This document shows positions 2,675 through 59,074 of a DNA stretch of 64,000 nt, one piece after another; the first letter of the stretch is position 1, and each line of letters starts with the position of its first letter. The notes under the pieces were generated by a model that did not search any database, had not been told where the DNA came from, and saw only the letters and a list, made by a program, of their open reading frames with translations. This stretch comes from Escherichia coli (GTDB lineage Bacteria > Pseudomonadota > Gammaproteobacteria > Enterobacterales > Enterobacteriaceae): NCBI GenBank assembly GCA_009729775.1, contig GCA_009729775.1_4081.1, one strand, 5' to 3'. The translations under genes were made by a program, and so were the position numbers.

Positions 2675-5600
2675 ATGAATGAACGAATTATATGGAGTCC
2701 AAAAATGACTAATAATTTTAAGTTTCAACCTACACAGATGGCTGAAGCAGTACAGAAGAAGCTTTTTATTAAAAGATTGCCTGAGTGGATGCAAGGCTTA
2801 GAAGATATTCAAAAAGTCAGTGATGATGTTATTCAACAATGGTTTAATCCGGCTGAAAACGAATTAGTTGACGGCTATATTGGTGATATGGGTTCTCCTG
2901 CCGCTGCTGGTAATATCTTCTTACATGAAAGTACTGTAGCACGTCAACTTTATCAGTTGTCCACTGCTTACGTCTCAAAAAATGATGATTCGACAATTCG
3001 TTCAATTCAATTTTATGATGATCTAGTTGGATACATGAATCATTATGGAGCACTAACCGATAATGAAAGCCGTTTGTTCAACGGTAAGTTTTATGCATGG
3101 ACTCCAGCTATTAACCCAAATAAAATGAACAATTTTAGCTCATATCTTTGGGATACTAAAAACTCTTATAATATTACTTCACCTGATTACATTGTAATGG
3201 AACGTGGAGCACTTAATGGTAATACATGGTCACTACAAAACTTTTGGTATACTTTAGGTGAAACATTAGAAGATGGCTCAATATTAACTGAAGAATTAAT
3301 GCAAGATTCACGTTTTATTCGTGCACGTGCACCAATTATTGAATATAATAAAAATATTGAGCTAATTAACTACGGTACAAAATTCCGTGGAACTGTTGAT
3401 CTGTTCTCTGATATTATTAAACCTGAAGATATCGTTCAAAAAGATATTAATAGTGGTATACGTATTGATGGTATTATTCCGCAAGATGGAATGCGTATTC
3501 TATTCACCAGTATTGGTAACAATGGTGAAAACAATAGAATTTATAATGTATATGTGAAAAAAATGCAAGATGGTACTCGTGTTTATGGTTTAGCACTAGA
3601 TCCAGAAGAAGAAACCGAATCACGCCCAAGTGGTGAACCTCAAGATGGTGATGTTGTTCTAATCACTAAAGGTAATGAGTATGGTAATAGTTCTATGTAC
3701 TGGAATGGTTCTTTGTGGGTTCGTGCACAATCAAAAACTAGTGTTAACGTATTCCCTAAATTCCAACTTTATGATCGTAATGGTATCAAACTTGACAACA
3801 GTACTACATATCCATCAAGTAACTTTAAAGGTTCAGAGTTGTTTGGTTTTAAAATAAATTACAACTATGCAACTGATAGTGTATATGGATATAACATTGA
3901 ACTTGGTGATTATAATTATTACATTTATGAAAACTTTTTACAATCACAACGTTATACCTATGACCATCTTGGAAAAGAAGTTGAAATTGATGGTTTATAC
4001 TATTATAACATTATTGATGAAAATAATGAAATGAATCTTCAAACCGATTGGGTTCGTTCAGAAGAGTACTCTAAACAATTTGTAAAACAAACTCCACAAG
4101 TCCAACGTACTGATATGTATCGTGTATTCAGTACTGTTTATGATATGGAAGTTTTTAAAGAACCAGTTGATGGTATGTATGCATATGTTATTGAAGTTGA
4201 TAGAACATATCAGTACTATAAAGCTGACCGTGAAACTTATCTAGATTGGCATCCAATTACTGGTGATGGTGTTCAGATTGTAAAATATGACCATACATTC
4301 GAATTGGCACAAAAAGTTTTAGATAATGATTCTGATATTATTGAAGTTGTGGTTGATGGTGTTGATGTGTCCAAATATACCAAAAATGTTTCAAAAGGTC
4401 AAGTACAAAGCATCACTCTAGATAGTACTGTAGAATTGGATGAAGATTCTGTTATTCAAATTAGAACTTATAGCAGTACTGTAACACCTGATAAAGAATT
4501 AGGTGCTTATGAAGTTCCAATCAACCTACAAAATAACCCATATAATTCTAATATTATATACATTAACCAAGGTGACTACACTTTACATTTTCAGGATATT
4601 ATTCAAAAGAACATTACACGTGGTTCTTCTGATGATTTCAATGACTATGAAGAACGTTTGGCTAAAGGATTGGTTAATAATGGCGTAGGTACTAAAATTA
4701 TCCAAAATGAAGCATCTATGCTTCCATTGATGGCACATACTGCAAATGAAGATATTGATTTGTTTGAAGCAACTATGTTTATGCAATCTGAATATTTTAG
4801 ATTCATTAATAAATTTAATACACAAATGCTTCGTATGTATGATGAAAATCCATCAGACTTTTTACAAAATAGTGCTGCAAACATTGTTGATGCAATTTTA
4901 ACTACTATTAATATGGGACGTGATAGTTCATTCCCATTCTATTATGATAATGTTGGAAGTACTTCTGGATTCATTCGTGCATTTATACCACCAACACCAC
5001 AGTTCTTAGGTATTCTTCAAGCATATGTACCAGAAAAAGCGACATTCCTCACTGCTGGTAGTAAACCAAGCTGTTATAACATCAGTCATACTGGTATTAT
5101 TTCCAAAGCATACCGTGTTATCAATGGTGTTGATAAAATGGATGATGTTGTATATGAATTAGAAAATAGAATTTTTAATAGTATTGATAATAAATTCAAA
5201 GATGTTGATTACGTACCAGTATTGAATAGTGATGACCTTTTCCCTACACCATATTTCACTAAAACTGAATATAGTGCTGAAGAGAAACAAACATTATTAC
5301 TACGTGGATACATTAACTTCACCGCAACTAATGGTATCAGTAATAGTACACATGATTATGATCCTAACAATTGGAGAACTTGGAACTATACTGGCACTTA
5401 TTATGTAGTTAATGGTCAAAGTACTGAAATTCCTGCACGTGGTTCATGGCGTGCCATTTACACTGACCAATATGGTACATATCGCCCAGCTACCCATCCG
5501 TGGGAAATGTTTGGCTTTACACAACGTCCAACTTGGTGGAACCAAGAATACGAACCAACGGCTGTTCAAGTTGGTGAACGTGATAGTGATGTTGTATATG

Positions 5601-8600
5601 TATATGAAGCACTTGTTATGAATGAGCAAGGTGATTTAGTTCCTAGTGGTCTTTGGGATATTGACGGAACTATTGGAGATAGCAGTACTGGAACTATTTT
5701 ATTTGGTGATCGTCGTGGTCAATATGACAAATATAAAAGATTTGGTGTACAGCCATTCAAAATTACAAAAACTGGAAATAAAACATCTTCTGGTATTGAT
5801 ATTTGTGTGGTTGAATATATTGCACCTGAAATTTTAGGTTTAGTGTCTGGTTCTTTAAATCATAGAGCAGAACCTTGGACATATGGTGATATGGGTGACA
5901 TGGAATTTACATACATGAACACTACATTGTTTGCATATGACCAAATGATGCTTTTGTATAAAGCTAAACCAGCACAATTTGCTAACTATTTCTGGGATAC
6001 CCGCAACGATAACTTAAAAGAAGTATTCACTGATGGTTCACAATTCCTTTATGGTGATACACGTAAGCGTATTAATTTTGATAAAAATACAGTAGTTCAT
6101 GGTGAAAATAGCACAAGAACAATTGGTTATCAAATGTTTGTAAGTGACCATTTGATGTATCAAAATAAAAATATTACCACCAAGTATGGGGATGTAGTTC
6201 GTTCTTCTTATATAAATGTTGGTCATAAAATTGGAGGATTTACTAAAGCAGATCAGCTAACATTCAATGCTAAATCTTTCGGTCTTATTTCACAAGAAAA
6301 CCAAACCATTGGTCTTGTTCGTTCTAATAATATCCGTGATGAGCAAATGAGTGCGATCAAAATTACTTGGAATGGTAGTGCATATCAGATTGATGGATAT
6401 GACCTAGTTGGTGCTAAATTTAAATATAAACTTCCAGTAAAAAATGGTAGAAAAGTAACTCTTAAATTGGAAAACCGTAATGTTGTTCATTATAATGAAT
6501 GGAAGTCTGAAGCTTCAATTGAATATGGTAAAGTTTTCAATAGTTACCAAGAAGTTTATACTTTTATTTGTGGATATGGTGAATATCTTAAAGAACATGG
6601 TTGGATTTTTGAAGATGTAAATGATAGTGGTGCTCAACAAGATTGGAACACTATTGCTAAAGATTTCGTGATCTGGAGTCAGAATTCTCTAGTAACTGGT
6701 GAATTTATTTCTTGTACCCCAAGTGCTGCAAACGCTAAATTTGGGGCAGACTTTGGTTCAGTACAATCTATTACGCAAAATAATGGTGGTGTATGGTCAT
6801 TACTTGATGATAATAACCAAGGTATTCGCCAATATGAAATTGAAACTTCTCGTATTGGAAATATCTTCACTGTTAGAACTTTAGAATCTAATAAACGCAT
6901 TGCATTGATTCGTTTAAGTTTGTGTTCATATGAACATGCTGTTATTTTTGATGATAAAACTATTTTTGGTGATTACATTTATCAGCCAACATATGGTTCT
7001 ATTCAAGAACTAATTAAAATGTATGGATATATTACTGGTTCATGGACTGGTCGCCTACAAGCTCCTGGATTTATTATATTGGAAGCTGGAACACTACCAT
7101 CATTTGAAAAATTAGTGTCGGATTTCCAACATTATTATGATAGTGAAACTCCAGTAAGTGATGTACAATTACAAGAGTTGTCAAACCATTTGATTGGTTA
7201 TCAATCTCGTGATTATCTACAGCGTATGATTAGTAGTGATGTTAGTCGTGTTGATTTCTATAAAGGATTCATTCACGATAAAGGTACTAACCAAGTTTTA
7301 GAACGTGTACTTCGTGTTTCTAAATCATATGACACTGATGAATATAAAGCATTACAAGAATGGGCATTTAAAATTGGTACATATGGTAATATTGATGGTA
7401 AGAAAAACCTTCAATTTAAACTAATCAATGACCAATTTAAACAACAACCTCAAATGGTTTCTTTTGATGTAAATGCAACTTCAAATGGTAATGGTAATCA
7501 TATTGTATACTTCGGTGAGCAGGGTAAAGATCCTCGTTGGATTACACGTCCAAATGGTAAGTTCTCATTCCCAATGCGTAGTGGAAGAAGTGAAAATATC
7601 CAACTTCCAGATATTGGTCCAGTAACATTGGATGAAGTATCGTACACAACAAAAGATTTCAGTACTGCATATAATGACCGCATAACTTATACTAATGGTA
7701 AAGGTGAAAATCCTGAATCTGTGTGGATGTTTAAAGACGGTAATGGTTTGTGGAACATTTTTGAATTGGTTGATACTAATGTGCAAATGGTTTCTATAAC
7801 ACCTATTGAAAATACCGATGTGTATGCTGAACAATTTTGTAAAGTAACTTTAACTGATAATGTGCCACTTGAAGATGGTGATTATTATTATTTTGTTGAT
7901 GAAACTAACTTTATGCCAGATACTTTAACAGTAGAAAGTCAATATTATACTGCTGGTTCTGATCCTAAAGTTATGGTAGTTCCATTTGACACTTCTATTG
8001 ATATTGAATTTACTGATCCAGATACACGTCCACGTTTGTATCGTTATGTATCACGTTTTGCCAGTACTGATGAACGTCAAGCTTACATTGACAAGAAATA
8101 TAGTTTTAAAGCACCACAAAGTACTTTATTTGATCGTCCAACGACATATGATGAACGTACTAACATTACTGAGCTATATCTAAACGTTTATGACCCAATT
8201 AATGGTGTTATTCCAGGTGCGGCTATGCAAAACGTAACATATACTTCACCAGTTGATCCTGCACAGTATAATAGTAATGGAGAGTTAATCCAGGCTTGGG
8301 GTGCTGATAAAGTTGGTCAAGTATGGTGGAACACTAGCACTGCATTTTATTTGGATTATACTCGTGCAATTTATGACGCAGACGGTAATGTTGACATTGA
8401 TGCAACCAATGAATACAAACGTTACAACTGGGGTCGTTTATTACCACATAGTACAATTGATGTGTTAGAGTGGGTTTGTTCACCAGTTGAGCCATATAAC
8501 TGGGACAAATACTGTAAAGATGTTGCTAAGAAAAACAAAAATAATACTATGTATCTACCAAGTGGAACTGCACTTGAAGATAATTATAGTACATTTTTGG

Positions 8601-52775: not shown

Positions 52776-53567
52776 TTAACCAATAATCATACCGAGTGGT
52801 TCAGCACCATCTTGATAACGTTTCAAACGCTCTTTAAGCTGTTCTTGAAGCTGTAAACCTTCATTGCGTAAGGTATCACCATCCATAGAAAACGTTCCCT
52901 GTGGTCCAGGAAGCGATGCAAATTTAGCACGGTTACGACCCAACATAATCATTGCTTCGGATAAAGCCCAATCACGCAACCAAGGATAACTTTGCTGCCT
53001 TTGGAACAACAATGGTTCAGGAATATTATGATAGACGTGTAATAGTACTTCTTCAGTACCACGAATATCACGATCTATAATTAATTTTTTGGTCATTGGG
53101 TTAAATTGAAATATAATATCACGACCAAACATACGACCTACCAGTTCTTGGAACTGAAAACTAAAATCATATGTAGTTAGATCATATCCACCAGCATTTC
53201 GTGCTGAAGTCAATAAGTAAGTGTTGGTGAATGCTAGAGAGAACGGGTCTACTGAGTTCCCACTACCAGAACTTAAGTAACCATTACCATAACGATAAAT
53301 CTTTTTAACAATTTCAACTTCAGTTGGTAGCATATATACAGATTGTGAATCATAAAATTTCATATTTAAAAATGCTTCTTCTTTAGAAGCAGAACTCCAC
53401 GCTCTGTAATTCGATACCGCATTATCAATTGCAATTTCTAATTGACCATCAGTAATTTCTACCTCAACGGCCCCAGCACCCAACATTTGAGTGATAACAT
53501 CTTTCAGTTTTTCACGATGGTCAAAGTTAGGAGCAGCAGGGTTTCCACCCATATAATCGTAAGACAT
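52776..53567 (-). CDS. neck (head-tail joining) protein, T4 gp13-like
   Basis: N-terminal ...REKLKDVITQMLGAGAVEVEITDGQLEIAIDNAVSNY resembles the T4 gp13 N-terminus as recalled from memory. ORF track starts at ATG 53582; the ATG at 53567 follows GAGGTG by 7 nt. Confidence 0.5.
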   Translation of the reverse strand: MSYDYMGGNPAAPNFDHREKLKDVITQMLGAGAVEVEITDGQLEIAIDNAVSNYRAWSSASKEEAFLNMKFYDSQSVYMLPTEVEIVKKIYRYGNGYLSSGSGNSVDPFSLAFTNTYLLTSARNAGGYDLTTYDFSFQFQELVGRMFGRDIIFQFNPMTKKLIIDRDIRGTEEVLLHVYHNIPEPLLFQRQQSYPWLRDWALSEAMIMLGRNRAKFASLPGPQGTFSMDGDTLRNEGLQLQEQLKERLKRYQDGAEPLGMIIG

Positions 53568-53617
53568 AAAAAAGCACCTCATTAATGTTTATATACATTA
53601 TTTAGAGGTGCTAATAG

Positions 53618-53836
53618 TTATTTTGAATTATACAAGCAGTACAGGTATACCAATGGAGTAAAATGTTCGGAATCTATTATATATATTAACTGAGTAACAT
53701 ATATTCCATATAGATCTCGTGATTTATCTCTGTACATTAACAATGATTTATTTAAGTAAGGATCAACCCAGTACTTAATATCATTGTACTTCAACGTGTT
53801 GTTACGGTAACCTGATAGTTTTGAATTTTTATTCAA
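53618..53836 (-). CDS. hypothetical small protein
   Basis: 72 aa; 8-nt overlap with the upstream gene. Confidence 0.5.
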   Translation of the reverse strand: MNKNSKLSGYRNNTLKYNDIKYWVDPYLNKSLLMYRDKSRDLYGIYVTQLIYIIDSEHFTPLVYLYCLYNSK

Positions 53837-54206
53837 TTTTCTTACAATTACTCAGTAAGTGAATGATATCATCAGCAGTGAATGGTCCCAATACCAGAAC
53901 TTCTTCACCATTACCGAAAATGCTCAATGGCACTGATTGTTGACCAGCTAGATATTCAATTTGTTCCAGTTCGAAAATGTCATCAGCAGCATATACTACC
54001 TGCTCCATTTCATTATCTTTAATCCATGACTGCCAATGTTCTTTAAACTTCTTAGCTTCGTATTCTTGAACATAGTTAGGTGATTCAGGGTTGTATTGAT
54101 GTAACATAGTCATCCCAGCCATTACTAATTCTTTAGGGGATGGTGTAGAATCTTTCAGTACTACGATAGCTTGGATAGTTTTTACTTTAACGTCATTAGC
54201 AGCCAT
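53829..54206 (-). CDS. peptidyl-tRNA hydrolase PTH2-like protein
   Basis: N-terminal VKTIQAIVVLKDSTPSPKELVMAGMTMLHQY and C-terminal EEVLVLGPFTADDIIHLLSN resemble the Pth2 fold signature (VVVR.DL.M..GK.AAQ..HA / TVLA.GP...LID.VTGHLKL). Confidence 0.45.
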   Translation of the reverse strand: MAANDVKVKTIQAIVVLKDSTPSPKELVMAGMTMLHQYNPESPNYVQEYEAKKFKEHWQSWIKDNEMEQVVYAADDIFELEQIEYLAGQQSVPLSIFGNGEEVLVLGPFTADDIIHLLSNCKKIE

Positions 54207-54218
54207 TATATACCTCTA

Positions 54219-54536
54219 TTATAGAATGATTTTATTCTCAGGAACGAAAACTTTTGGAGTGTTTTCGATTGCTTTAATAGCATCAACATAAGCATCAACT
54301 AATGCAGGGTTTGCATCACTAACACTAATAATGTTGGATTTATAAAAAATAACATTTTTCTCCATACTAACAAACTCTAGATAATCACGAAGAATGATTT
54401 CACCATTTTCGTCAGTCCCTAGTTGTGCTGGGTAGTTAACTACAACAGCTTCAGCAGAATCGGTTTGAAGAACTGCTAGTACTGGGCCAATGTTATTGAT
54501 GTTTAGTAGTTTAACGGTCATAGTCATTTTTGTCAA
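54219..54536 (-). CDS. hypothetical protein
   Basis: 105 aa ORF packed between the macrodomain and Pth2-like genes. Confidence 0.6.
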   Translation of the reverse strand: MTKMTMTVKLLNINNIGPVLAVLQTDSAEAVVVNYPAQLGTDENGEIILRDYLEFVSMEKNVIFYKSNIISVSDANPALVDAYVDAIKAIENTPKVFVPENKIIL

Positions 54537-54546
54537 GTCCTTTTGT

Positions 54547-55023
54547 TTATTTTAGAATGTATAAGTGTTTTTCTGCATTGACCAGACGGTGATCAATGAT
54601 TTCTTTGATAACGTTCCAGTTACCGCCGCCCAAATCGGCTCCAATTTTCGGGAAATGTACATGAACATCTCGATCAACTTTACAAAAATAATTTAGATGT
54701 TTGAACACATCGTCAATTGCATCATAACTGACATATTTAGCACCGTCATTACCGTACATTTTTTGGGTAATACAGTTTGCAATAATCAAATTATCGTTAA
54801 TTGCTGAATATGCAATTTGTCCAATTCTAAGAAATCCCATTTCCTTTTCATATGCTTTATAATCATCATATGCCATTGGATAACGATTTCTTAGTTCTTT
54901 TGCAAAACCTGAACCCATTTTACCCTGTGCGTTACAACCATGAGCAATTATATGTAATGCATTTTGATCATCGGTAACAGTACTGAACAATTCAAACAGA
55001 TTACCTCTGTGTTCATGTATCAT
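54547..55023 (-). CDS. macrodomain protein (TARG1/OARD1-like ADP-ribosyl hydrolase)
   Basis: ALHIIAHGCNAQGKMGSGFAKELRNRYP and FPKIGADLGGGNW match the TARG1-type motifs (AHCISEDCRMGAGIA ... PRIGCGLDRLQW). Confidence 0.75.
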   Translation of the reverse strand: MIHEHRGNLFELFSTVTDDQNALHIIAHGCNAQGKMGSGFAKELRNRYPMAYDDYKAYEKEMGFLRIGQIAYSAINDNLIIANCITQKMYGNDGAKYVSYDAIDDVFKHLNYFCKVDRDVHVHFPKIGADLGGGNWNVIKEIIDHRLVNAEKHLYILK

Positions 55024-55033
55024 TATATTCTCC

Positions 55034-55063
55034 GAAAAGAAAGGACTCTTTTACAGAGTCCTT
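55034..55063 (-). terminator. terminator/attenuator hairpin upstream of the macrodomain gene
   Basis: AAGGACTCT-tttac-AGAGTCCTT stem followed on the minus strand by UCUUUUC, then GGAGAA SD and ATG. Confidence 0.45.
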
Positions 55064-55071
55064 ATTTTAAA

Positions 55072-55314
55072 TTATTCTTCTTCACCGAAACGGATTTTCT
55101 TTAATTCTTTTCGATGCTTTCTAGCTATTGTACTTTTGTGAAGTCTATTACTGCGTTTTGTGTCTTTTGTAATGTACCATGAATCTTCTGGTGCATCATA
55201 ATCACAAAATCCATCTTCCGTAATTGTTCCTAAAAATGCAGATTTTTTAGGAATATTAGTTTGAGCTTTAGCCTGAAATTGACCTTTTGCTAATTGTTCA
55301 CGAAAACTGAGCAT
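55072..55314 (-). CDS. hypothetical small basic protein
   Basis: ORF track start is TTG 55329; the ATG at 55314 (MLSFREQ...) follows GGGAGA by 7 nt. Confidence 0.5.
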   Translation of the reverse strand: MLSFREQLAKGQFQAKAQTNIPKKSAFLGTITEDGFCDYDAPEDSWYITKDTKRSNRLHKSTIARKHRKELKKIRFGEEE

Positions 55315-55360
55315 AATAGTATCTCCCAAATTGTTAAGAAGAACTTTTTGTTCTTCACAT

Positions 55361-55603
55361 TTATTTAGGGTTGCCAGAAACCTTCACATATTTGATAAAT
55401 GCCAAAATATCATCTTTACTAAAAGATTTTACAATAAATTCGACAGCCGAATCATACTGTTCTTGTTTAGATAGATATTCTTTCATTTTGTTAATTTTAA
55501 TCTGGGCTTTTTCTTTAGCTATTGAAATATCAGGAATTTTGAACTCTACTCCCAACGTATCAGCTAGTTGTTTTGCACGAGATGATACTTTTTCAATATC
55601 CAT
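55361..55603 (-). CDS. hypothetical small protein
   Basis: ORF track start is TTG 55612; the ATG at 55603 forms a TAATG stop/start overlap with the glutaredoxin gene. Confidence 0.55.
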   Translation of the reverse strand: MDIEKVSSRAKQLADTLGVEFKIPDISIAKEKAQIKINKMKEYLSKQEQYDSAVEFIVKSFSKDDILAFIKYVKVSGNPK

Positions 55604-55851
55604 TAGTTCCAACGACCTTCTTTAAGACCTTCAATAAATCCAGTACAACCACCTGGTACATAAATGTCATTTACGAAAATTTGAGGAACTTGACGAACTG
55701 GTTCACCACAAATTTCAGACAGTTTTGAACCATCGATACCTTCAGCAACAATATCTACAAACTCCATTTCAAATTTATTTTGTTCACATACAGCTTTTGC
55801 AGTGTCGCAAAATTTACAACCAGTCTTGCGACCATAAATTTTAACTTTCAT
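55603..55851 (-). CDS. glutaredoxin (T4 NrdC-like)
   Basis: 82 aa; CxxC active site in IYGRKTGCKFCDTAKAV; resembles T4 NrdC (CVYCDNAK). Confidence 0.75.
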   Translation of the reverse strand: MKVKIYGRKTGCKFCDTAKAVCEQNKFEMEFVDIVAEGIDGSKLSEICGEPVRQVPQIFVNDIYVPGGCTGFIEGLKEGRWN

Positions 55852-55852
55852 G

Positions 55853-56251
55853 TTATTTCCTTCTATTTCTTTGAAAAGCTTTAACAGCTTTAATAATACT
55901 GTTACACATTCGTTCAGTCAAATACTTTTGACATTCTCGTACATCAATGTACATGAACTTATCCAATTCTGGATGACTCTTACCATATCTATTAGTGTAA
56001 GTACTTTTACAAACTAATTCATCTGGTATTGGTTTGTCTTTGGCAGTATAAAAGAAAAGTACTAACCTTTTTCCCTTTCTATAGGATACATCACCAAGAA
56101 ACAGAAGATCATCTTCATCGATTTCGTATCCTGTCTCTTCGAAACATTCACGTACAGCAGCTTCTTTGAAAGTTTCATTACCCTCAGCTTTCCCTTTAGG
56201 TAAATCCCAATGATTCTGTCCGTGTTGTATGTCCGATAAGTATCTGACCAT
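55853..56251 (-). CDS. Nudix hydrolase
   Basis: Nudix box GKAEGNETFKEAAVRECFEETGYEI. ORF track begins with GTG 56254; ATG at 56251. An extended -10 (TGgTATAAT) lies ~12 nt upstream, suggesting a near-leaderless mRNA. Confidence 0.75.
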   Translation of the reverse strand: MVRYLSDIQHGQNHWDLPKGKAEGNETFKEAAVRECFEETGYEIDEDDLLFLGDVSYRKGKRLVLFFYTAKDKPIPDELVCKSTYTNRYGKSHPELDKFMYIDVRECQKYLTERMCNSIIKAVKAFQRNRRK

Positions 56252-56362
56252 CACGATAAAATATTATACCACAACTATAACGCATATCTTATCTCTTTGT
56301 CATCAATCGATGTTCAGATACTAATAATTATATCAGTTATTGGTTTTTTGTCCCACTATTTT

Positions 56363-57475
56363 TTAGAACATTTGTTTGATTGCTTCGTAACGAAGTTCAC
56401 AAACAAAATCACGAATTTCTGACGTTTCAAGTTCACCATCTTTGACCATTTGCTGAATATCAGGCAATTCAACATCAGTATAACGATCATAAACTTTAAT
56501 AATTAGATCTTCAAGTTCTAAATCAATTTCTTTTCGCAAAATGAAGTATTCCAAAACTTTATAAAGGAATTCTTCACCTCCGTTATTTTTAATATTCATA
56601 TCCAATAAAATATTACCCATTTCAATAGGGGTCTTTTTACGGAATGTTTTGATATCATCACGGAAACGTTTGATATAATTACTAAATTTAACATACTTAA
56701 CTGGAACTTTAATAGCACCGTTAAGTACTGAATCATTATTTACTTCTTCATTTTCAAGAAGAATAGACCACAGAAAATATGGTTTATATACATCCGTACA
56801 GTTCTCTGCAATATAATCAATAAGGTCTAAATTCTTTTTGGTCAAAGATGTATTAAACACCTTTTCGTAATAACCAAATTTACTTAGCGTCTTAAGGAAC
56901 TTTGCAGGCTTTTCTTCGGAAAATGCTTTTTCGAATTCCACAAAAACACGGTCAGGAACAAGATGATTTAGTTCACCACTATTGACCATTCCAATAGCGA
57001 GTTCCTCAGTGCTTTCATGGATAGTAAAGTCTGAATAACGAGTAGCAAATCGAGCAAGACGTAACACGCGTAATGGATCTTCTTTAAAATGGTCAGAAAC
57101 ATGACGTAGTATCTTGTTCTTGATATCAGCTTTACCACCGTATGGATCGATGTGAATTTGTAGTACTGGATCATACGCAATTGCATTAATTGTAAGGTCA
57201 CGGCGATACAAATCTTGTTCTAGTGTTACGCCTTTTGTATCCACTTCAAAGCCACCATATCCAGTACCAGTTTTACGCTCAGTACGGGCTAATGCGTGTT
57301 CATTACCTTCTGGACTTAGATATACTGGGAAATCCTTACCTACTTGCTTATAGCCAATACTTTGCAAGTACTTAAGATCAGATTCGGATGCACCAACAAT
57401 GACATAATCTTTGTCTTTTGCACGGATGCCCATTAAACGGTCACGGACGTAACCGCCAACCAAATACTTTTTCAT
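56363..57475 (-). CDS. cca: CCA-adding tRNA nucleotidyltransferase (class II head domain)
   Basis: MKKYLVGGYVRDRLMGIRAKDKDYVIVGAS parallels E. coli Cca MKIYLVGGAVRDALLG...DRDWVVVG; the RRDLTINA motif is present. At 370 aa it is shorter than E. coli Cca, so an HD domain is probably absent. Confidence 0.85.
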   Translation of the reverse strand: MKKYLVGGYVRDRLMGIRAKDKDYVIVGASESDLKYLQSIGYKQVGKDFPVYLSPEGNEHALARTERKTGTGYGGFEVDTKGVTLEQDLYRRDLTINAIAYDPVLQIHIDPYGGKADIKNKILRHVSDHFKEDPLRVLRLARFATRYSDFTIHESTEELAIGMVNSGELNHLVPDRVFVEFEKAFSEEKPAKFLKTLSKFGYYEKVFNTSLTKKNLDLIDYIAENCTDVYKPYFLWSILLENEEVNNDSVLNGAIKVPVKYVKFSNYIKRFRDDIKTFRKKTPIEMGNILLDMNIKNNGGEEFLYKVLEYFILRKEIDLELEDLIIKVYDRYTDVELPDIQQMVKDGELETSEIRDFVCELRYEAIKQMF

Positions 57476-57610: not shown

Positions 57611-58033
57611 TTAAATTAATCTATCACGTAGACGGTCGTAATATTTTTTGTGTATAGCTAGTATACACTGATATGCAGAATAGTCAATACCAAATGTATC
57701 ATCAATGAACATGTACTGATCAAGTGTTTCCGGTCCATTATCATCAACTGGTAATGTCCCTTCTTTTTTTGATAGTGTGTGCCACATCAACTCACTTTCA
57801 ATATGGTGAGTTGCGTATGTCAATTCTATCTTACTTTTTCGTAGTAAAATTAACAATTCATCATTGTCGTCGAGTGCATTACGAAATTTAATACGAACTG
57901 TACCCTGGAAATTATTAGTGTACATAACACGATGATGATTGTATGAAATCAAACCACGTCTTTCAGTACTGATTTCGTGTTCAGCAAAGTACTTTAACGT
58001 TTCATTAAATTTTGGAATTTTAGTAACGTCCAA
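57611..58033 (-). CDS. hypothetical protein, paralogue B
   Basis: C-terminal EGTLPVDDNGPETLDQYMFIDDTFGIDYSAYQ is paralogous to the upstream gene; apparent TTG start behind GAGGA, overlapping the upstream gene by 14 nt. Confidence 0.6.
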   Translation of the reverse strand: MDVTKIPKFNETLKYFAEHEISTERRGLISYNHHRVMYTNNFQGTVRIKFRNALDDNDELLILLRKSKIELTYATHHIESELMWHTLSKKEGTLPVDDNGPETLDQYMFIDDTFGIDYSAYQCILAIHKKYYDRLRDRLI

Positions 58034-58436
58034 TCACATAATCCTCATAAAGTTCGTATACCCTCATTATACTCTGATATGTATCAAAGTCAATACCAAA
58101 GGTATCCTCAATGAACTGATATTGCAAAAACTCTTCCTCTGTAGCAGCAATAGGAAGAGTCCCGTTTCGTTGTTCTGTGGATTGAACATCCTCAATATAC
58201 ATCAACACTATACCTTCATCCAGATTTATATCTATCATAAAAACATCTTCACTATAAAATATGTTATATGTACGGATGAAGAGATTTCCTGTTCTATCAT
58301 AACTTGACACGTGTGTTTCATAATACATTTTATCTAAACTAAAGAACAAACCTGTACTATCTGGCTTTTTAGTATTTTTTAATTTAATTTCGATAGCATC
58401 AATAATAGGTTTAATATCAAATTTTTTCATAGACAA
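58020..58436 (-). CDS. hypothetical protein, paralogue A
   Basis: NGTLPIAATEEEFLQYQFIEDTFGIDFDTYQ; 138 aa. Confidence 0.6.
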   Translation of the reverse strand: MSMKKFDIKPIIDAIEIKLKNTKKPDSTGLFFSLDKMYYETHVSSYDRTGNLFIRTYNIFYSEDVFMIDINLDEGIVLMYIEDVQSTEQRNGTLPIAATEEEFLQYQFIEDTFGIDFDTYQSIMRVYELYEDYVIGRY

Positions 58437-58625: not shown

Positions 58626-59021
58626 TTATAAAAAGTAATTATACAGTTTATTGTACAATATAAAAAGGTCTTTCACATTATCATAAGTAATATCAGATAC
58701 ATCATGAATTAATGATAACTGAAAAAATGAAGCTTCGTCTATTTCTGCTGGAATTATAACATCACCATCGTCTTCGTCCATTTTATTAGTGTAGTATTTT
58801 ATGTGATCTACATTCAACTCAATAGAGAACGCAATGTTGGTTTTTGTATAATCTTCAATTAATCCAATATATTGAGATTTTTCATTAATAAAAAATCCAA
58901 TCCCAACACAACGGTTATCTGGATATGGATAGTACCATCTATTAATAACTAGGTGTTCAGGTAAGTCCATATCATGTGTTGATATTATAGATTTTACAAT
59001 TTCCATCCAGGAATAATTCAT
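58626..59021 (-). CDS. hypothetical protein
   Basis: 131 aa; GGAG SD; downstream of the HPF terminator. Confidence 0.6.
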   Translation of the reverse strand: MNYSWMEIVKSIISTHDMDLPEHLVINRWYYPYPDNRCVGIGFFINEKSQYIGLIEDYTKTNIAFSIELNVDHIKYYTNKMDEDDGDVIIPAEIDEASFFQLSLIHDVSDITYDNVKDLFILYNKLYNYFL

Positions 59022-59033
59022 AATTAAAACTCC

Positions 59034-59065
59034 ATAAGAAAAGGGACAGAATTAATCTGTCCCTT
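59034..59065 (-). terminator. terminator hairpin downstream of hpf
   Basis: AAGGGACAG-aattaat-CTGTCCCTT followed by a U-rich tract on the minus strand. Confidence 0.45.
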
Positions 59066-59074
59066 TAGTATATA

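Follow-up and report, generated by a model that had tools for sequence, protein, structure and literature searches.

The window analysed here is a stretch of 64,000 nucleotides from Escherichia coli (GenBank assembly GCA_009729775.1, contig GCA_009729775.1_4081.1), and the genes in question are two that lie towards its end, encoding a tRNA nucleotidyltransferase of the CCA-adding type (370 amino acids) and a small protein resembling the peptidyl-tRNA hydrolase Pth2 (125 amino acids). An earlier note, made from the sequence alone, had read the two genes, in one early island with the ribosome-associated protein HPF, as a module that counters tRNA-targeting defence. Both open reading frames were found exactly where that note had placed them, on the minus strand. 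HPF was likewise found in the same gene region with 37.4 bits on Pfam Ribosomal_S30AE against a cut-off of 23.7, while its score on TIGR00741 was 30 bits, under the cut-off of 40.9. The window was correctly described as free of tRNA genes, as neither ARAGORN nor Rfam returned one, and the Rfam scan of the whole window gave no match of any kind.

The 4-kb stretch around both genes was 99.5% identical to Escherichia phage 121Q (Asteriusvirus, 348.5 kb) and 98-99% identical to about 20 further jumbo coliphages, including PBECO4, phAPEC6, Sharanji, and G17. Judged by this sequence identity, the window is part of a 121Q-type Asteriusvirus, a jumbo phage of E. coli of about 350 kb. It corresponds to approximately 250.5-314.5 kb of 121Q, in reverse orientation. 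Tail, baseplate, and other structural genes make up its first 49 kb, and the CCA enzyme and Pth2-like genes sit in a minus-strand gene run directly upstream of the neck and sheath genes (Table 1).

The CCA enzyme and the tRNA genes of the phage

The 370-amino-acid protein matched the Pfam head domain PolyA_pol (PF01743, E=7e-19) and the neck domain PolyA_pol_RNAbd (PF12627, E=4e-8), and in PHROG it was assigned to tRNA nucleotidyltransferase with E=2.5e-116. The gamma-proteobacterial Cca models of NCBIfam scored 274, 237, 203, and 199 bits, and the PcnB poly(A) polymerase models 93 and 48 bits. Motif conservation was judged on an alignment of 20 homologues reaching down to 38% identity. Residues G7, G8, R11, D12, and D23 of motif A were invariant and D21 nearly so, followed by invariant R91-R92-D93 in motif B, D110/G114/D117 in motif C, E132-D133-P134-R136 in motif D, and R176/E180 in motif E. 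The longer motif strings GG..RD, DxD, RRD..T.N, D..G..D, EDP.R..R..RF, and R...E were invariant as well, and the loop region ALARTERK..G.GY, typical of gamma-proteobacterial Cca, was conserved too.

The AlphaFold2 (AF2) model of the enzyme reached a predicted local distance difference test score (pLDDT) of 92.4 and a predicted template-modelling score (pTM) of 0.85. With Foldseek, 385-402 columns were aligned to solved CCA-adding and A-adding enzymes with a query-normalised TM score (TMq) of up to 0.72, the full-length matches being 3h38, 4wby, 1miv, and 4x4w, and also 5hc9, a tRNA complex. From head and neck to body and tail, the protein has all the parts of a class II tRNA nucleotidyltransferase. 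The call as a CCA enzyme is borne out by Pfam, PHROG, the motifs, and the model, and it is sound to assign the enzyme a role at the 3' ends of tRNA; the head domain named in the earlier note is present, and the protein is more than this head.

Compared with E. coli Cca (NCBIfam PRK10885), the phage enzyme shares the head and neck, motifs A-E, the ALARTERK loop, and the overall four-domain class II shape, but differs in having no HD domain. The PRK10885 model was matched only at positions 1-207 of 409 (274 bits against a cut-off of 451), leaving positions 208-409 unmatched, and the C-terminal half of the phage enzyme is a phage-specific helical body and tail with the motif NNGGEEFLYK, unlike E. 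coli Cca. No HD domain (PF01966) was detected in the phage enzyme or in its full-length homologues, whereas bacterial relatives sharing only the N-terminal 55% do carry it. Past residue 197, no His or Asp is conserved among the 20 homologues except D330, and no His-Asp pair occurs. As far as the sequence tells, the phage enzyme is a Cca of the gamma-proteobacterial type that lost its HD phosphohydrolase domain, which in E. coli Cca carries phosphatase, 2'-nucleotidase, and 2',3'-cyclic phosphodiesterase activities. Several GenBank records use the name "multifunctional CCA protein", which is unjustified without an HD domain.

Phage 121Q has seven annotated tRNA genes, six of which were recovered by ARAGORN, and three of the seven (Gly, Ser(ACU), and Thr) do not encode CCA, each reading N-C-AAAA. 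Seven tRNA genes are also reported for Sharanji (PMC11895373). This phage is 99.2% identical in the region analysed here, and ARAGORN likewise gave seven genes, of which four (Thr, Asn, Ser(ACU), and Gly) end in discriminator-C-A-A or C-A-T and not in CCA. In RaK2, which belongs to a different genus, CCA was not encoded in four of eight tRNA genes. Because nearly half of its tRNA genes are without CCA, the phage's own tRNAs are obvious substrates of its CCA enzyme. Such tRNAs could not function until CCA is added, and the phage supplies the enzyme along with them.

All tRNA genes of E. coli are known to encode CCA, and its Cca is a dispensable repair enzyme. Several tRNA precursors of phage T4 are without CCA and are matured by E. 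coli Cca. The two phages are alike in carrying CCA-less tRNA genes in a host whose own tRNA genes encode CCA, but T4 leans on the host enzyme, whereas the 121Q-type phage brings its own. From the enzyme family and the CCA-less tRNA genes, both plainly present, we infer that the one serves the other. Maturing the phage's own CCA-less tRNAs is the simplest explanation of the enzyme and most likely the correct one, and it is ranked first here. During infection, the enzyme would most likely add or complete the 3'-terminal CCA on tRNAs. Its main substrates would be phage tRNAs from the genes ending in discriminator-C-AAAA, and repair of exonucleolytically nibbled host tRNA ends would be a by-product.

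The tRNA region showed several further features. A tRNA-Ser with the anticodon ACU, and therefore A at position 34, occurred in 121Q (sequence L015, 2965-3056) and in Sharanji (sequence L003, 17471-17562). A tRNA-specific adenosine deaminase is encoded by Sharanji (PMC11895373). Deamination of A34 to inosine, if it occurs, could allow this tRNA to read AGU and AGC and also AGA, which codes for Arg. The tRNA whose anticodon is CAT was 90 nucleotides long with a long extra arm in Sharanji (L003, 17374-17463) and 75 nucleotides long in 121Q (L015, 3064-3138), and the tRNA-Asn gene encoded CCA in 121Q and not in Sharanji. Though the phages are otherwise 99% identical, their tRNA regions were 91% identical at 56% coverage. 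In relatives, HNH endonuclease genes are inserted in this region, which is a turnover hot spot.

A Pth2-fold protein and the canonical PTH2 of the clade

The Pth2-like signatures reported for the 125-amino-acid protein held for family homology and fold, and did not hold for a profile search with the single sequence or for the enzyme-defining residues. Searched alone, the protein gave 12.5 bits and E=0.18 on Pfam PTH2 (PF01981), below the cut-off of 23, and no NCBIfam Pth2 match. Its PDB matches by phmmer (eL6 and FtsY, E>0.1) were noise, and weak Pfam matches to Csx1_CARF and DUF5646 (E=0.02-0.06) were not recurrent across its family. This family is small, with 10 relatives found in a search of 5.8 billion sequences and 24 in an exhaustive profile search of 1.84 billion representatives. 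By tblastn, the gene occurred in 71 phage records, all of RaK2-like jumbo phages of enterobacteria and Xanthomonas.

Profile searches succeeded once the family was used, so that the failed profile search which the earlier note had named as refuting the Pth2-like call applies to the single sequence and not to the family profile. Pfam PTH2 was matched by 18 of 27 family members, with a best E of 2e-8, and the family profile matched six solved Pth2 chains at E values of 4e-5 to 4e-3, over the full length in the case of S. solfataricus Pth2. Aligned by hhalign to five solved Pth2 enzymes, the family reached a probability of 96.9% with E=2e-10 over 102 columns. The top 12 PDB matches of the AF2 model with Foldseek were all Pth2 (E=3e-6 to 1e-4, TM 0.56-0.76, probability 1.00), and its fold matches in BFVD were viral PTH2 proteins. 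By fold and profile, the 125-amino-acid protein is a true remote Pth2 homologue. The likeness to archaeal and eukaryotic Pth2 (S. solfataricus, 1XTY; human PTRH2/Bit1, 1Q7S) extends to the structural Trp and to the Gly-Pro after the last strand, both also present in the phage family.

The residue test covered the 29 columns invariant among the five solved Pth2 sequences; the human PTRH2 domain was checked and found 100% identical to 1q7s. In the hhalign alignment, the phage protein retained 7 of the 29 (D19, W61, A87, G100, G107, P108, and K122). Of these, only W61 and G107-P108 are conserved across the 27 members of the phage family, where they are invariant; outside the seven, E50 and P93 are nearly invariant in the family. 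The motifs that mark the enzymes are lost. The GKGK motif is reduced to Pro-Ser and a gap, its Lys positions falling on Pro22 and on the gap, AQ..H reads KE..M with the His gone, and GQxK reads EMxQ. In DxGxT, the Asp is replaced by Asn99 and the Thr lies with the following loop in an 8-residue deletion, and the C-terminal DxxTGxxKL motif is gone. A HMMER alignment to S. solfataricus Pth2 agreed in placing Asn99 at the Asp and a gap at the Lys. None of the active-site Lys, Asp, and Thr positions of Pth2 is conserved in the 27-member family. Mutagenesis by Fromant and colleagues in 2005 is said to have found Lys18 and Asp86 of S. solfataricus Pth2 necessary for catalysis.

Between helices 1 and 2, the protein carries a 12-residue insert with the family motif Y-x-P-x-S-x-x-[YF]-V-G-x-x-E, whose final residue is E50. 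It has a net charge of -10 and a pI of 4.64, and all 27 members are acidic (net charge -5 to -13, pI 4.25-5.09), compared with -1 to +6 in canonical Pth2. Such a strongly acidic surface is poor for gripping tRNA.

Canonical PTH2 is encoded elsewhere in the clade. In Escherichia phage A4 (Asteriusvirus), gp114 (sequence L014, 6040-6450) scored 66.8 bits on Pfam PTH2, and tblastn with this protein found orthologues in RaK2, K64-1, GAP32, CBB, Serratia BF, and in Erwinia, Yersinia, and Salmonella jumbo phages. Munch and EJP2 are also listed with a second PTH2 gene. The canonical genes of RaK2 (164265-164663, H6X423) and GAP32 (283378-283779) lie far from the locus studied here. All phages with A4 gp114 orthologues carry the divergent Pth2-like copy too, and this coexistence across the clade argues against redundancy of the two paralogues. 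The canonical proteins (A4 gp114, RaK2 H6X423, and those of GAP32, CBB, BF, and sequence L010) belong to the same superfamily and the same jumbo-phage group and are likewise small and single-domain. They differ in retaining R-x-D, GK, AQ, H, W..G..K, and D-x-G and in passing Pfam, and also in position, being placed elsewhere in the genome or beside the CCA gene, whereas the degenerate paralogue stands beside the neck gene.

Among Escherichia phage records, tblastn found canonical PTH2 only in A4 and EJP2, and three canonical queries found none in the window. Sharanji gp258, of similar size and in the same neighbourhood as A4 gp114, was considered as a hidden PTH2 and gave zero PTH2 signal. The 121Q-type phages are without a recognisable peptidyl-tRNA hydrolase of their own and appear to have lost canonical PTH2. 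On the metagenomic contig L010 (SRR22103699_31152), a CCA enzyme, a canonical PTH2 of 171 amino acids, and a YqeY-domain gene follow each other directly at 5236-7438. The CCA and PTH2 genes overlap by 4 bases there, and the PTH2 has a 55-residue N-terminal extension, a strong PTH2 match, and all canonical motifs, while the divergent Pth2-like copy lies 3 kb beyond the trio beside the neck gene. As a candidate for a real tRNA-end module, this CCA-PTH2-YqeY run surpasses the two genes in the window.

Degeneration of the Pth2-like protein is thus evident at the level of its residues, and the protein is probably not a peptidyl-tRNA hydrolase. The peptidyl-tRNA recycling that the earlier note ascribed to it is unlikely because the motifs are lost, the loop is deleted, the protein is acidic, and it coexists with canonical PTH2.

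The auxiliary block and its expression signals

In the enterobacterial relatives, the gene order runs from lysozyme through HPF, where present, and small genes to the CCA enzyme, NUDIX, glutaredoxin, and further small genes, and continues with macro, phrog_527, Pth2-like, neck gp13, dNMP kinase, and sheath. The macro gene is kept between the CCA and Pth2-like genes in these relatives; in the window, its product matched the DarG macro region of NCBIfam at E=4e-8, far under the cut-off. HPF is present at this position in GAP32 and missing from the RaK2-type contig, and the GAP32 island has an extra YqeY-like gene (gp189). On L010, PTH2, YqeY, and unrelated small genes stand in place of NUDIX, glutaredoxin, and macro. 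The intervening genes turn over among relatives, so that the CCA gene and the Pth2-like gene do not make up a dedicated pair. They are neighbours in a conserved auxiliary block (HPF, CCA, NUDIX, glutaredoxin, macro) and form no dedicated two-gene module. No RNA ligase or kinase was found in the island.

Table 1. Features of the gene run around the CCA enzyme and Pth2-like genes in the window
Feature	Position	Strand	Matches and remarks
T4 gp13-like neck protein (head-tail adaptor)	52776..53582	-	phrog_211 E=2e-41; present in phAPEC6 virion
TAAATA late-promoter-like motif in hairpin with neck-gene Shine-Dalgarno in 3' arm	53567..53625	-	
Acidic degenerate Pth2-fold paralogue, 125 aa	53829..54206	-	121Q gp546 (annotated hypothetical); phrog_14786 E=6.6e-57
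phrog_527 conserved protein, function unknown, 105 aa	54219..54536	-	phrog_527 E=8e-22; immediately upstream of Pth2-like gene
Macro-domain protein, 158 aa	54547..55023	-	phrog_335 E=1e-45; Pfam Macro weak, 16.4 bits
Glutaredoxin, 82 aa	55603..55851	-	Pfam Glutaredoxin E=2e-8
NUDIX hydrolase, 133 aa	55853..56254	-	Pfam NUDIX E=1e-12; phrog_1185 E=5e-47
HD-less class II tRNA nucleotidyltransferase (CCA-adding enzyme type), 370 aa	56363..57475	-	121Q gp539, annotated tRNA nucleotidyltransferase
HPF/RaiA-family ribosome-associated protein, 110 aa	59075..59407	-	Pfam Ribosomal_S30AE E=4e-9; 121Q annotation HPF/RaiA
Possible 2H phosphoesterase, 136 aa	60519..60929	-	Pfam 2H-SAK E=1.2e-5, 26.0 bits against cut-off 27, C-terminal part only

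Only one gene, that of the gp13-like neck protein, adjoins the Pth2-like gene throughout, in 121Q, the RaK2 type, GAP32, L010, L011, and L012, with a gap of 30-57 nucleotides in five of these six lineages. A fixed pair of phrog_527 and the Pth2-like gene held in the RaK2-type contig and GAP32 (51-55% identity) and not in the distant L010-L012. A virion role was also considered for the Pth2-like, macro, and CCA proteins; none of them is among the 62 virion proteins of phAPEC6, in which the adjacent neck and sheath proteins are present.

A TAAATA motif lies about 45-55 nucleotides before the start codons of gp13 and sheath and is conserved in the window and five distant relatives; it is reminiscent of the T4 late promoter. 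At gp13, its place is inside or immediately before a stable hairpin, the 3' arm of which includes the Shine-Dalgarno sequence. The minimum free energy of this hairpin was -15 to -23 kcal/mol, with z of -4 to -7 in five of six lineages, and its stems differ in sequence between lineages while the geometry is constant. The same element was located at 8380-8441 in L004, 7341-7402 in L009, 10367-10428 in L010, and 1037-1098 in L011. The arrangement resembles that of T4 lysozyme (gene e) and soc, in which the ribosome-binding site is hidden in early transcripts that read through and exposed in late ones starting inside the hairpin. If this switch holds here by analogy, the island upstream would be transcribed before the late genes, which would lend indirect support to the "early island" of the earlier note. 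A scan for the sigma-70 consensus gave 50 sites against 51.2 expected, a chance level that is uninformative on early expression.

Two GC-rich stem-loops with T-run flanks occur in intergenic gaps at 55041-55063 and 59040-59066, with 9 and 11 pairs respectively, and are terminator-like. The first lies between an 85-amino-acid open reading frame and the macro gene and the second just downstream of HPF, where it overlaps the region's best sigma-70-like match (TTGACA-17-TATACT, 59095-59067). Between the Pth2-like and neck genes, a 72-amino-acid open reading frame at 53618-53836 on the minus strand (121Q gp547) has a TTG start, no PHROG or Pfam match, and no counterpart in relatives, and may be a spurious call within an insertion of about 200 bp.

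Three tandem minus-strand genes between HPF and the CCA enzyme (57611-58033, 58020-58436, and 58626-59021) encode related proteins of about 135 amino acids. They were assigned to phrog_20693 twice and to phrog_36582, all touching phrog_17453, and gave no Pfam match; they share the C-terminal motif F-I-[DE]-D-T-F-G-I-D...Y. The 2H-like protein belongs to phrog_12204 and has two H-x-S/T motifs, HVSIV and HITVG, and no PDB sequence match. Together with the macro and NUDIX proteins, it would cover known steps of ADP-ribose-1'',2''-cyclic phosphate breakdown; alternatively, it would supply the cyclic phosphodiesterase that the HD-less CCA enzyme is without.

Functional readings of the locus

The account preferred here, to which we give a probability of roughly 0.6, is that of an HD-less CCA enzyme serving phage tRNAs and a Pth2 paralogue that is not a hydrolase, both placed in an auxiliary block and not in a module. 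The paralogue would act by way of a protein partner to which it binds, or else at a new site built around its family-specific insert with E50. The block would probably be transcribed before the late genes, lying upstream of the late neck and sheath operon.

Several points weigh against this account. T4 manages with host Cca, so that a phage copy is not strictly needed for maturation, which leaves room for defence-related selection. The divergent body and tail half of the enzyme makes its specificity, whether CCA-adding, CC- or A-adding, or poly(A), less than certain from sequence. In the Pth2-like protein, E101 and E102 (D or E in other members) lie near the former Asp position and leave room for a remodelled active site. 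Weak PTH2 profile matches remain in 9 of 11 close relatives, and the absence of canonical PTH2 from the 121Q-type phages means that the divergent copy could suffice there. The AF2 model of the protein is also moderate, with a pLDDT of 76 and values of 64-70 in the family-specific insert.

Of the other readings, the counter-defence module proposed in the earlier note, in which the CCA enzyme rebuilds tRNA ends, the Pth2-like protein frees peptides from stalled or damaged peptidyl-tRNA, and HPF adds ribosome control, fares best and is nevertheless unlikely. A partnership of CCA enzyme and PTH2 does exist in the clade on L010, but the PTH2 gene there is another one. Cuts of the RuvC type end in a 3'-OH, from which an HD-less CCA enzyme could start, but without an HD domain the enzyme could not heal the 2',3'-cyclic phosphate ends left by metal-independent tRNases, and the island offers no ligase or kinase. 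Cutting of the 3' CCA tails of tRNAs by Cas12a3 has been described as an immune mechanism to which viral countermeasures are, in the words of its authors, unknown (PMC12851939). However, Cas12a3 removes the discriminator along with the CCA (PMC12851939), and CCA addition alone would not restore it. The module is further opposed by the loss of the conserved Lys, Asp, and Thr motifs from an acidic Pth2-like protein, by the canonical PTH2 of most relatives, beside which this copy is not the clade's hydrolase, and by the variable gene content between the two genes. The CCA-less phage tRNA genes are, moreover, a sufficient alternative reason for the enzyme.

Less probable again is that the Pth2-like protein has rebuilt its active site, for example with E50 and E101/E102, and continues to hydrolyse esters, acting on peptidyl- or aminoacyl-tRNA or on an ADP-ribosyl ester, which would fit the macro and NUDIX neighbours. 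E50 is nearly invariant over 27 diverse members within a conserved family-specific motif, acidic residues recur at the former catalytic loop, and the 121Q-type phages have no other PTH2. Several GenBank records name orthologues aminoacyl- or peptidyl-tRNA hydrolase, but these names are most likely automatic profile transfers. The net charge of every member speaks against binding of polyanionic tRNA, and the former active-site loop is short and variable across the family.

A joint reading, more doubtful than the rebuilt hydrolase, would see the 125-amino-acid family as phage-specific acidic pseudoenzymes, possibly neo-enzymes, of the Pth2 fold, derived from a PTH2 duplication and working through a new site in the family-specific insert, for example as decoys, and would have the HD-less CCA enzyme share the repair of tRNA 3' ends with the 2H-like, macro, and NUDIX proteins, as a distributed system. 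As a decoy or inhibitor, the protein might bind a basic host factor whose usual target is the acceptor end of tRNA; host Pth, an elongation factor, or a nuclease of tRNA tails would be examples. In the repair part, the 2H-like, macro, and NUDIX proteins would replace the end-healing of E. coli Cca and answer immunity that cleaves tRNA tails.

It is improbable, and somewhat more so than the decoy or repair forms, that the protein assists neck or head completion without entering the virion, for instance as a chaperone for the gp13-like protein, and arose from a PTH2 duplicate. The gene directly precedes the gp13-like one in each of the six lineages examined, with changing genes on its own upstream side, but all lineages belong to one broad clade in which gene order is generally conserved, so that adjacency is weak evidence. 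The protein is small and acidic, as many assembly chaperones are, and absent from the phAPEC6 virion in which the neck protein is present; the TAAATA motif and the hairpin hiding the ribosome-binding site between the two genes suggest different expression classes. Finally, that the 370-amino-acid enzyme is a poly(A) polymerase or another RNA 3'-end nucleotidyltransferase marking host or phage RNA is very improbable: head and neck are common to bacterial poly(A) polymerases and class II CCA enzymes, and specificity comes partly from the C-terminal half, which is divergent here, and PcnB structures are among the Foldseek matches, but the Cca models score far above those of PcnB, the gamma-proteobacterial loop region is kept, and the top structural matches are CCA-adding enzymes.

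Parts of this picture were already known. The CCA gene is annotated in RefSeq, and the idea of repair by CCA enzyme and Pth2 has been published for jumbo phages; in 2021, Iyer, Anantharaman, Krishnan, Burroughs, and Aravind interpreted gene sets of these phages as serving RNA repair and the rescue of ribosomes (PMC7824862). In the passages of that paper considered here, the degenerate acidic paralogue is not set apart from canonical PTH2, and the CCA enzyme is not tied to CCA-less phage tRNA genes. As far as could be found, three points are apparently new: that the Pth2-like gene is an acidic, degenerate paralogue and not the clade's real PTH2, that the latter is missing from 121Q-type phages, and that the CCA enzyme can be tied to the phage's CCA-less tRNA genes. 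The observation of the earlier note is thereby partly confirmed and its interpretation partly supported; the finding is a fairly ordinary one, and its added value is corrective.

It was shown in 2026 that immunity can target the 3' tails of tRNAs, to which no viral answer is known, and phage CCA enzymes are the obvious candidate to try against such systems. Given that this CCA enzyme has likely substrates in the same genome, it ought not to be invoked in support of counter-defence unless this has been put to the test. The annotation of Pth2-like orthologues as peptidyl- or aminoacyl-tRNA hydrolases should not spread. Should the paralogue turn out to act as a decoy or as a new enzyme, it would offer a clear case of a virus repurposing the fold of a translation factor.

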